Assembly: GCF_057098645.1 (NCBI RefSeq)
Contig: NZ_CM169472.1
Length of the DNA stretch: 64,000 nt
Direction: 5' to 3' (one strand)
A model generated the notes under the pieces. The model was not told the DNA's origin, searched no databases, and was given only the letters and a program-made list of their open reading frames with translations. Both the position numbers and the translations under genes were made by a program. Shown here piece by piece: positions 55,692-56,877 of the stretch. Numbering within the stretch: the stretch's first letter is position 1; the number at the start of each line of letters is the position of its first letter.

Positions 55692-56564
55692 TCACCCCCT
55701 AAAAACCTCTTTCCGATGCCACTCTACAAACACCTCATAAGGGTAATTTTTACGCACCTGCGGCAACGTAATAGTTTTCCCGTCAAAATCCCAGAATAAT
55801 CTCTCAACGATCCCTCCGCCGTTTACCGCATCTGATACCAGTACCCGCATATTTTCGTCCAGGCCAATCGATCCTTTATCAAAGGCTTTATGGTGAATTG
55901 CGCAAAGCGCCAGGCCATTAGGAATTTCACAAGGACCGCCGTGCTGTTTCCATTTTATATGCGCCGCTTCCAGCGCGACGGTGGTGTCGTCGTGGCGCAT
56001 ATTAAAGCCACATATCGCGCACTGGTAGTTATAAGCGCGTAATACATTTTTGCGAAATAACGGGTCGCGCTGTTTACGGATTTGCTGGAGATCAAAACCC
56101 AGCTCGTCAGCGATTTCTTCCTGAATACTCTCGGTGAAGTGCGCTTCGAGTATCTGTTGCGCCAGAGTATTGATGAGTTTTTTATTGCCGATTACCAGGG
56201 CGTAGTGCTGTTCATCGAAACCGCCTGCAACGTGGTATTCGTTCAGTTCCTTCACTGGCGGTTGTCGGCTGCTCCCTGCTGTTGAGCAACGCTCGGCATT
56301 GTGTAATTGCCAGAATCCGTCGCCTTGTAATCGCCAGAACGGCATATCAGGTCGGTACTGTGAACGCTGTGGCCCAAAACGTTCCAGTAAACTGTGCAGA
56401 GGTTCGTAGATTTCCGATCCATAATCGAAAAGGCGCGGATGTCCATTCAGGTATCCCGCTAATACGTATAGCAGTAACAATGGTTTATGCGGCGCGCGCT
56501 GTTCACCCTTGTGCCAAATTTTTATGTTGGCAATTGCCTGCTGTAGCGATTTACTGGAAGCCAT
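55692..56564 (-). CDS. HNH nuclease domain protein (predicted restriction endonuclease-like)
   Basis: About 290 aa with C-terminal HNH motif CAICGF...EAAHIKW...LCAIHHKAFD; start assumed at MASSKSL, overlapping the upstream gene stop by 14 nt. Confidence 0.6.
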   Translation of the reverse strand: MASSKSLQQAIANIKIWHKGEQRAPHKPLLLLYVLAGYLNGHPRLFDYGSEIYEPLHSLLERFGPQRSQYRPDMPFWRLQGDGFWQLHNAERCSTAGSSRQPPVKELNEYHVAGGFDEQHYALVIGNKKLINTLAQQILEAHFTESIQEEIADELGFDLQQIRKQRDPLFRKNVLRAYNYQCAICGFNMRHDDTTVALEAAHIKWKQHGGPCEIPNGLALCAIHHKAFDKGSIGLDENMRVLVSDAVNGGGIVERLFWDFDGKTITLPQVRKNYPYEVFVEWHRKEVFRG

Positions 56565-56877
56565 TGATATCCCAGGCAGTGAAATAATTGCAATCATGCT
56601 CGCAAATTTTCTGCTGTTCAAGCCTGCAAGTGAAGATCCATTGCTGTGTTGAGGGATCAAAAGACAACAAAAACTTATTGAAGAAATAATCTTCTGCTTT
56701 TTTGTCGAAATAATAGGCATTGATCTTGTCTATAGCTGCTAAATATTCTCCAGCCTCGTTGAGATCTTCAAAATAGCCATTGAAGATGTTCTGGTTAACA
56801 CCGCCAGTAACATAAGCCTTGCCGCTGTGTACAAAAGTCACATTACCCGCCATGCCCATCGGCGCGTGCGACATCAA
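56551..56877 (-). CDS. small hypothetical protein, translationally coupled to the downstream HNH gene
   Basis: 108-codon ORF; its stop overlaps the start of the HNH ORF. Confidence 0.45.
   Translation of the reverse strand: MMSHAPMGMAGNVTFVHSGKAYVTGGVNQNIFNGYFEDLNEAGEYLAAIDKINAYYFDKKAEDYFFNKFLLSFDPSTQQWIFTCRLEQQKICEHDCNYFTAWDINGFQ

Follow-up and report, generated by a model that had tools for sequence, protein, structure and literature searches.

A predicted stand-alone SBD-HNH restriction endonuclease gene overlapped by a nanM deletion scar in the leuX defence island of Escherichia coli

Introduction

Does a short open reading frame (ORF) that overlaps the start of a nuclease gene in a bacterial defence island encode a partner of that nuclease, or is it a by-product of the way in which the island was assembled? 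The question is raised by a locus of Escherichia coli contained in a stretch of 64,000 nucleotides from contig NZ_CM169472.1 (RefSeq assembly GCF_057098645.1), hereafter the window. A 108-codon ORF and a 290-codon ORF lie there in the same orientation, overlap by 14 nt, and directly follow a Zorya operon that is read in the same direction. A first-pass annotation had described this arrangement and the C-terminal HNH motif of the larger product correctly, and had taken the overlap as a sign of co-translation and stoichiometric partnership. The pair was proposed to constitute a type IV modification-dependent restriction enzyme with a partner or a nuclease with an immunity or sensor subunit, and possibly an accessory to Zorya. 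The features of the locus are collected in Table 1. With a probability of roughly 0.93, the locus would comprise one functional gene, encoding a stand-alone EcoWI-type restriction endonuclease with a sulfur-binding domain (SBD) and an HNH domain, whose activity we infer, and one deletion scar, with no partner gene.

Table 1. Features of the locus, in window coordinates
Feature	Position	Strand	Description
brxL C-terminal remnant (BREX Lon-like protease)	55468..55647	-	PADLOC BrxL E = 1.7e-19, profile 623-680 of 680; RefSeq pseudogene; other boundary of the cassette
SBD-HNH enzyme gene	55692..56564	-	Intact, 290 aa; predicted phosphorothioate-dependent restriction endonuclease, EcoWI-type; RefSeq WP_000168583.1
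HNH nuclease domain with zinc finger	55857..56021	-	Residues 182-236; Pfam HNH_2 PF13391
Sulfur-binding domain (SBD)	56145..56552	-	Residues ~5-140; phmmer match to the ScoMcrA SBD, 5ZMO
108-codon chimeric ORF	56551..56877	-	80 nanM codons + 28 read-through codons; judged not to be a gene
Enzyme leader, native, 73 nt	56565..56637	-	Contains a small palindrome and, 6 nt ahead of the ATG, a Shine-Dalgarno-like GGGA; bounded by deletion junction 1
Internal nanM fragment	56638..56881	-	NanM residues ~119-199 of 368; pseudogene remnant; 92-93% identity to intact nanM of ET151, AHB5 and K-12
nanM start-region remnant	56879..56924	-	Start codon 56894-56892, AGGAG ribosome-binding site, nanC-nanM spacer, last bases of nanC
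3' flank of the Zorya module	56925..57103	-	Perfect 11-bp hairpin at 57068-57093, directly after the zorE stop
Type II Zorya operon, complete	57104..60577	-	zorE 57104-58207, zorB2 58211-58918, zorA2 58925-60577

An intact gene for an SBD-HNH endonuclease

The supported start of the larger ORF is the ATG at 56564, and RefSeq also begins the gene at this position and names its product "phosphorothioated DNA-binding restriction endonuclease". In a profile search, the resulting protein of 290 residues matched NCBIfam model NF045808 with 438.6 bits, well above the cutoff of 180 bits, and the match extends from residue 6 to residue 289 and over positions 2-284 of the 284 in the profile. A mechanically compiled ORF list also held a 342-codon version starting with an ATG at 56720; it was rejected because the NF045808 profile begins at residue 6 of the 290-residue form and because the extension crosses nanM-derived DNA in the wrong frame.

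The N-terminal domain of the protein is related to the SBD of ScoMcrA (phmmer E = 4e-8 for structure 5ZMO, with 5ZMN and 5ZMM also matched). Residues H26, K27, and P75 of the enzyme align with H116, R117, and P165 of ScoMcrA, and M74 occupies the position of Y164. Structural work on ScoMcrA established that its sulfur cavity is built from those residues, that Lys stands in place of Arg in most homologs, and that the residue at the Tyr164 position varies with sequence context (PMC6224610). The motif KPLLLL...PFWRL...W of the enzyme likewise agrees with the published pattern KPzzLL-PF-L-W (PMC7461809). Toward the C terminus, Pfam HNH_2 (PF13391) matched residues 182-236 with E = 1.1e-9, and the HNH motif residues are C182xxC185 (CAIC at 182), H202 (within AAH), and C221xxH224-H225 (CAIHH at 221). 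The protein therefore presents the features that define the NF045808 family and the EcoWI/SprMcrA type, namely a full-length profile match, an SBD with the His, Arg/Lys, and Pro cavity residues, and a C-terminal HNH domain with a CxxC...CxxH zinc finger. It also has the character of a single-gene system without a conserved partner, its upstream neighbors varying between genomes, and no dnd or ssp genes, i.e. no adjoining cognate dnd cluster, are annotated between leuX and fimB in a colinear O145 genome. Judged by fold and family, the 290-residue protein is a full-length SBD-HNH protein and a predicted phosphorothioate-dependent restriction endonuclease.

Relation to EcoWI and ScoMcrA

The literature on EcoWI (Lutz et al. 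2020, PMC7461809; Yang et al. 2022, PMC9521924) concerns an enzyme of the same species with the same two-domain SBD-HNH architecture and, as here, no SRA domain. EcoWI is a Mg2+-dependent endonuclease that acts at GpsAAC/GpsTTC sites, cuts at N7/N6, and is a dimer of 33.4-kDa subunits; expressed alone, it abolishes transformation by dnd+ plasmids in vivo (PMC7461809). The two proteins fall in the same length class, with 33.4 kDa published for EcoWI and 33.3 kDa calculated for the 290-residue protein, and belong to the same NCBIfam family, NF045808. At the equivalent locus, E. coli W carries an ortholog of 290 residues, 285 of which (98%) are identical to those of the enzyme in the window, and the five substitutions between them are R92L, I125T, G156R, H208Q, and T266A. 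Neither an accession nor a sequence for EcoWI is given in PMC7461809 (main text and supplement), PMC9521924, or PMC10602919; EcoWI is probably the E. coli W ortholog, an identification taken from the enzyme name only. The gene in the window differs from that of EcoWI in having been relocated from the usual site near nanS; of what lay upstream of it, only 73 nt remain. By analogy with the EcoWI literature, the enzyme would be expected to recognize Rp phosphorothioates in a GAAC/GTTC context (GpsAAC/GpsTTC), to cleave nearby at N7/N6 as a Mg2+-dependent homodimer requiring no partner, and to restrict DNA from Dnd-positive donors.

A further comparison can be drawn with ScoMcrA of Streptomyces coelicolor, an SBD-SRA-HNH enzyme of known structure (5ZMM, 5ZMN, 5ZMO), and with SprMcrA, which has the SBD-HNH arrangement. 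Shared features are the homologous SBD, in which the H, K/R, and P residues of the cavity are kept, the C-terminal HNH domain, and the type IV logic by which modified foreign DNA is cut. In contrast to ScoMcrA, the enzyme in the window has neither an SRA domain nor an N-terminal head domain, and identity between the two SBDs is only ~20-30%. The enzyme also has Met in place of Tyr164, a position tied to sequence context at which the published Y164M mutant of ScoMcrA showed better binding, and EcoWI-type enzymes further differ from ScoMcrA in using Mg2+ and cutting at a fixed distance.

The small ORF is derived from nanM

The 108-codon ORF opens with a TTG, with an ATG as codon 2, and no Shine-Dalgarno sequence precedes either of these codons. 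Its overlap with the enzyme gene covers 56551-56564, and the two readings lie in different frames, so they cannot be portions of a single ORF. Codons 1-80 correspond to an internal piece of nanM (codons 120-199; DNA 91-93% identical), which makes up 74% of the ORF, and the last 28 codons are read-through over the 73-nt leader of the enzyme gene as far as the first stop. Resemblance of the translated product to any known sequence is limited to its first 80-83 residues and is to NanM. The corresponding profile, NF010730, gave a partial match of 110 bits against a cutoff of 416 bits and covered positions 129-212 of 384. NanM (YjhT), the N-acetylneuraminate epimerase, is a kelch beta-propeller of ~368 residues with a signal peptide. 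The product of the small ORF would lack both ends of this protein, i.e. residues 1-119, with the signal peptide and the first blades, and residues 200-368, and would retain less than two kelch blades. The RefSeq annotation (PGAP) likewise assigns this DNA to an "N-acetylneuraminate epimerase" pseudogene, incomplete and missing its N terminus and C terminus.

The start codon of nanM is itself retained upstream of the fragment. Its frame differs from that of the fragment and reads MNKTIN-stop, and the stop of this six-codon remnant overlaps the ATG of the small ORF in a UGAUG at 56876-56872. The colinear O145 genome still has a complete nanM-nanC pair, 33 kb further on and adjoining fimB; the fragment is therefore an additional, incomplete copy of nanM, brought along with the enzyme cassette. 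The overlap with the enzyme gene is no more than chance expects, because past the junction at 56637 the frame need stay open for only 28 codons, for which the probability is (61/64)^28 = 0.26, or about 1 in 4.

Codon differences were also counted in both parts of the locus. In the nanM fragment, all 5 codon differences between the window and O157 are non-synonymous and none is synonymous, and the small ORF is unbroken in both of the lineages in which it was fully translated (O145 and O157). The enzyme gene, compared with its orthologs, shows synonymous to non-synonymous differences of 8:3, 13:6, 21:10, and 14:9. All these counts are small, and they run as would be expected for a working gene beside a decaying one. 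Taken on its composition and homology, the small ORF is a chimeric nanM pseudogene scar and no real gene, and its earlier description as a protein gene does not hold: it has no Shine-Dalgarno sequence, it consists of a nanM fragment and read-through, and RefSeq treats it as a pseudogene.

Two deletions shaped the upstream region

The breakpoints that gave rise to the scar were defined by alignment with K-12 and by BLAST against strain ET151. The enzyme gene and the 73 nt upstream of it (55689-56637) showed 96.5-98.6% identity in these comparisons. The match to ET151 (L006 2998-3946) is 98.6% identical and ends exactly at 56637; on the far side, homology with other contexts stops at 55689, so that the enzyme cassette measures 949 bp. 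The adjoining segment, 56637-56881, corresponds to nanM codons 119-199 at 92-93% identity, and it is followed by a segment, 56879-56924, that aligns with L006 6804-6849 at 93.6%. The breakpoints are thus placed at 56637 (junction 1) and at 56879-56881 (deletion 2), and relative to ET151 they imply that 2275 bp and 337 bp, respectively, were deleted. The larger deletion took nanS and a small HNH gene together with 45% of nanM at its 3' end, and the smaller one took part of the 5' region of nanM and fused the nanM start remnant to the internal fragment.

The leader that remained with the enzyme gene, including the GGGA element, is also present in ET151, AHB5, RMDEC465, and T-HYM1. Inspected by eye, it contains a candidate promoter consisting of TTGAAC, a spacer of 17 nt, and CATGAT, with a match of 8/12.

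A scan of 55400-57300 returned three promoter-like sites against 3.9 expected, none of them upstream of the enzyme gene, and 0 terminators. In the ancestral intergenic region, the small leader palindrome was the sole feature that a scan picked up, and no promoter was detected. Part of the native promoter of the enzyme gene may have been lost in the deletion, and expression in this strain is putative. A repeat search of 56500-57150 identified only the hairpin after zorE and short chance repeats.

Distribution across E. coli and the case for a partner

The 1.7 kb around the gene pair is 100% identical in many E. coli O145:H28 chromosomes, in which it is situated in the island beside the tRNA-Leu gene leuX. 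Among 5426 complete E. coli genomes, the enzyme gene was present in 1706 (counted at >=80% coverage). The deletion junction of the window, traced with a 276-nt probe across it, occurred in 355 of the 5426, and an equivalent probe for the undeleted arrangement, in which a divergent HNH gene lies upstream, was positive in 1235. In the undeleted order, as found in ET151, AHB5, and RMDEC465, nanC-nanM-nanS is followed by a divergent gene for a 216-residue HNH protein, the SBD-HNH gene, and mcrC/mcrB-like genes. E. coli W has the undeleted arrangement with a truncated HNH gene, and in K-12 the enzyme gene is reduced at this site to a frameshifted remnant. T-HYM1 possesses the Zorya block, and there the divergent HNH gene still lies between a different nanM remnant and the enzyme gene. 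In all four undeleted contexts compared, the frame that would overlap the enzyme gene is closed 29 codons upstream of its stop and offers no ATG, GTG, or TTG, and hence no overlapping upstream ORF exists.

This distribution bears directly on the proposal that the small ORF encodes a translationally coupled partner of the HNH nuclease, such as an immunity, sensor, or regulatory protein, and that the two form a two-gene system. The 14-nt overlap and shared orientation speak for such coupling, as do the intactness of the small ORF in O145 and O157, the stability of the configuration in 355 genomes, and the UGAUG stop-start overlap that ties the ORF to the remnant nanM start and its ribosome-binding site. 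Yet the supposed partner is missing from at least 1235 genomes in which this enzyme occurs, no ORF occupies its frame in the undeleted contexts, and EcoWI works without a partner (PMC7461809). The ORF is for the most part internal nanM DNA, in which every codon difference counted against O157 is non-synonymous and which PGAP calls a pseudogene, and the rest of it is read-through. The hallmarks of a coupled two-gene nuclease system are consequently absent, as co-occurrence is not kept across genomes and the upstream ORF is no bona fide coding sequence, and a coupled partner is judged very improbable. Of the earlier proposal of a type IV enzyme with a partner, the enzyme class stands, with NF045808 and the SBD specifying it as phosphorothioate-dependent, whereas the partner dissolves into a deletion scar. 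The reading of the small ORF as an immunity or sensor subunit falls with it, since a nanM scar occupies that place in the 355 genomes with the junction and a divergent neighbor does so in at least 1235, as does the inference of co-translation and stoichiometric partnership, the undeleted arrangement having no ORF to be co-translated.

The Zorya neighbor

The adjoining operon is a complete type II Zorya system: ZorE (NF041791, 696 bits) and ZorB2 (NF041787, 444 bits) score above the NCBIfam equivalog cutoffs of 600 and 400 bits, respectively, and the PADLOC model of ZorA2 is covered over its full length. PADLOC calls all three components, as ZorE2, ZorB2, and ZorA2. The hairpin that follows zorE has a minimum free energy of -19.4 kcal/mol (z = -3.8) and no U-tract, and the 3' flank in which it lies (56925..57103) accompanies zorE in O157 (Z1815), T-HYM1, and W5-6.

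This proximity gave rise to the idea that the SBD-HNH gene might serve Zorya as an accessory effector and be transcribed together with zorE by read-through. The gene does lie in the same orientation 540 bp downstream of zorE with no canonical intrinsic terminator in between, and the block of zorABE, nanM fragment, and SBD-HNH gene recurs in O145, O157, and other strains. Against this stand the completeness of ZorA2/ZorB2/ZorE without the enzyme, the stable hairpin after zorE, and the pseudogene debris between the two modules, a sign that recombination joined them and not of an operon. In T-HYM1, moreover, a divergent gene stands between the Zorya block and the enzyme gene, and in most cases the enzyme gene lies beside nanS and mcrBC-like genes, away from any Zorya system. 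The enzyme gene is thus neither consistently associated with type II Zorya nor part of its gene set, and an accessory role is, like a coupled partner, very improbable. Read-through transcription from zorE into the enzyme gene may occur in this lineage; it would then be a consequence of the rearrangement, and not a sign of a shared system.

Two further possibilities

Another conceivable reading, for which we see only the slightest chance, is that the scar was co-opted in the O145/O157 lineage. Ribosomes would load at the intact nanM ribosome-binding site, stop after six codons, re-initiate at the UGAUG on a 107-codon ORF, and end 14 nt inside the enzyme gene. If this were true, a pseudogene fragment would have been turned into a translated leader, or even a small protein, of recent origin, and ribosomes would be handed on to a restriction gene left with little of its upstream region.

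The least probable reading, that the HNH protein is a homing endonuclease or other selfish nuclease rather than a defence enzyme, draws on the commonness of HNH domains in homing endonucleases and on the sharp boundaries of the 949-bp cassette in different contexts, but is contradicted by a free-standing gene with no host gene, intron, or intein around it (an Rfam scan of 51500-58500 returned only two chance miRNA-like matches and no intron family), by an N-terminal domain that is an SBD and no homing-endonuclease DNA-binding module, and by the experimentally established phosphorothioate dependence of the SBD-HNH family (PMC7461809, PMC6224610).

A model for the locus

The preferred reading, of a lone restriction endonuclease gene beside a deletion scar, can be cast as a sequence of events. 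In most E. coli, the enzyme gene is found at the right-hand end of the leuX defence island, where the order is nanC-nanM-nanS, divergent small HNH gene, SBD-HNH gene, mcrC, and mcrB. In the lineage of the window, a copy of this segment would have undergone the two deletions of 2275 bp and 337 bp, by which nanM codon 199 became fused to the 73-nt leader of the enzyme gene. The nanM frame would by chance have remained open for 28 codons more, stopping 14 nt inside the enzyme gene. The enzyme gene would keep its own leader and Shine-Dalgarno-like element, such that coupling to an upstream frame would not be needed. In the predicted mode of action, the SBD recognizes the sulfur of Rp phosphorothioates that Dnd systems have introduced into foreign DNA, and the HNH/zinc-finger domain of a homodimer would then cut at a fixed short distance; the expected outcome is that the entry of phosphorothioate-modified plasmids or phages is blocked.

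The surroundings fit the leuX-anchored defence island described as "hotspot 37" in an EcoSal Plus review (PMC12707154). The enzyme gene lies between leuX and nanCMS/fim, its neighbors include Zorya II, Druantia III, a BREX remnant, and a P4-like satellite, and the content is mosaic and scarred by recombination. There is no essential difference from the hotspot as described in that review, and the locus represents one more arrangement of known cassettes.

Implications

The enzyme family is already known and has been characterized biochemically, structurally, and in vivo, and both features of the locus are rightly named in RefSeq; for the family itself, the meaning of the finding extends little beyond annotation hygiene. 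For defence islands, the locus illustrates that short ORFs that overlap the beginning of a genuine gene can arise by read-through from recombination scars, and that homology together with cross-strain conservation of such ORFs quickly decides between scar and gene. It also stands as a clean example of a 949-bp restriction cassette that was reshuffled within the leuX hotspot and carries with it a piece of its former flank.

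Recombination scars at the edges of the enzyme cassette

The SBD-HNH phosphorothioate-dependent restriction endonuclease gene is followed directly downstream by a relic of brxL, the gene for the Lon-like protease of BREX systems, of which only C-terminal codons are left. This relic is a further scar of recombination and delimits, on that side, the 949-bp cassette formed by the enzyme gene and its leader. On the Zorya side, the retained nanM start codon and its ribosome-binding site open a six-codon mini-ORF, and the UGA that ends it overlaps, in the sequence UGAUG, with the AUG belonging to the chimeric ORF (the nanM fragment with its read-through). 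The overlap has the classic geometry of translational re-initiation and is an accidental product of the 337-bp deletion.

The same nanM fragment, fused to a truncated zorE, was found in the pheV island of strain W5-6 (locus L003, 6014-7359). There the block lies in a different tRNA island (tRNA-Phe), is flanked by IS1 and IS5, and carries IS5 in place of the SBD-HNH gene. This recurrence at another tRNA island means that the scarred block has moved as a unit.

Organization of the surrounding island

Colinearity with the O145:H28 reference is broken at positions 37923-52344 of the window, where the 3' end of leuX is the integration site of a 14.3-kb P4-like satellite. The satellite content includes psu/delta-like genes, as well as an IS21 istA/istB insertion that is missing from the best-matching complete genomes (best coverage, 82%). 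Mapping of the reference onto the window also yielded self-matches in the holC-pepA intergenic region (about 30655-30950), corresponding to a tandemly repeated unit of about 98 nt whose copies are 91-93% alike.

Searches of the 682-aa ORF beside the satellite against NCBIfam, PADLOC, and Pfam returned nothing significant, the sole matches being to PDC-M29B (E=0.0011) and PHB_depo_C (E=0.07). The ORF is conserved beside leuX in other strains, where it is labelled a hypothetical protein, and it is possibly an uncharacterized defence gene.

At the far end of the window, druH and zorA2 are divergently transcribed, and in the colinear O145:H28 genome the next gene after druH encodes a 2104-aa DEAD/DEAH helicase; thus, a type II Zorya and a type III Druantia system stand back to back. 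The perfect hairpin downstream of zorE lacks a U-tract; its minimum free energy is -19.4 kcal/mol (z = -3.8), and in other strains, too, it accompanies the Zorya module.

Features of the island and of the native locus (window coordinates unless stated)
Feature	Position	Strand	Details
leuX tRNA	37923-38007
Direct repeat	37984-38007 and 52321-52344		24 nt, flanks satellite
Satellite integrase	38160-39446
Satellite type II restriction enzyme	39912-40730
Satellite m5C methyltransferase	40768-42021	-	paired with type II restriction enzyme
IS21 istA/istB insertion	45835-48253
Satellite primase-helicase	49452-51785
682-aa ORF	53021-55069	+	first island gene past satellite right end
BrxL C-terminus remnant	55468-55647	-	59 codons; PADLOC E=1.7e-19, profile 623-680/680
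Mini-ORF MNKTIN	56872-56894	-	6 codons; ribosome-binding site AGGAG
Hairpin	57068-57093		11 bp, 4-nt loop; 11 nt past zorE stop
DruH, type III Druantia	60789-64000	+	PADLOC 2429 bits
216-aa HNH gene	4010-4660 of L006 (strain ET151 locus)		missing from window

The native locus in other E. coli

In most E. coli, the SBD-HNH gene is accompanied by a divergent gene for a 216-aa HNH protein, located 136 nt away, with weak PADLOC matches (E about 1e-5) to type IV methyl-directed restriction enzymes. In K-12 MG1655 (locus L009), the SBD-HNH gene persists as a frameshifted 206-nt remnant (3032-3237) between yjhR and ythB/nanS, and the enzyme has therefore been lost from K-12. Together with the adjoining mcrBC-like genes, the 216-aa HNH gene gives the native locus the appearance of a cluster of modification-dependent nucleases.
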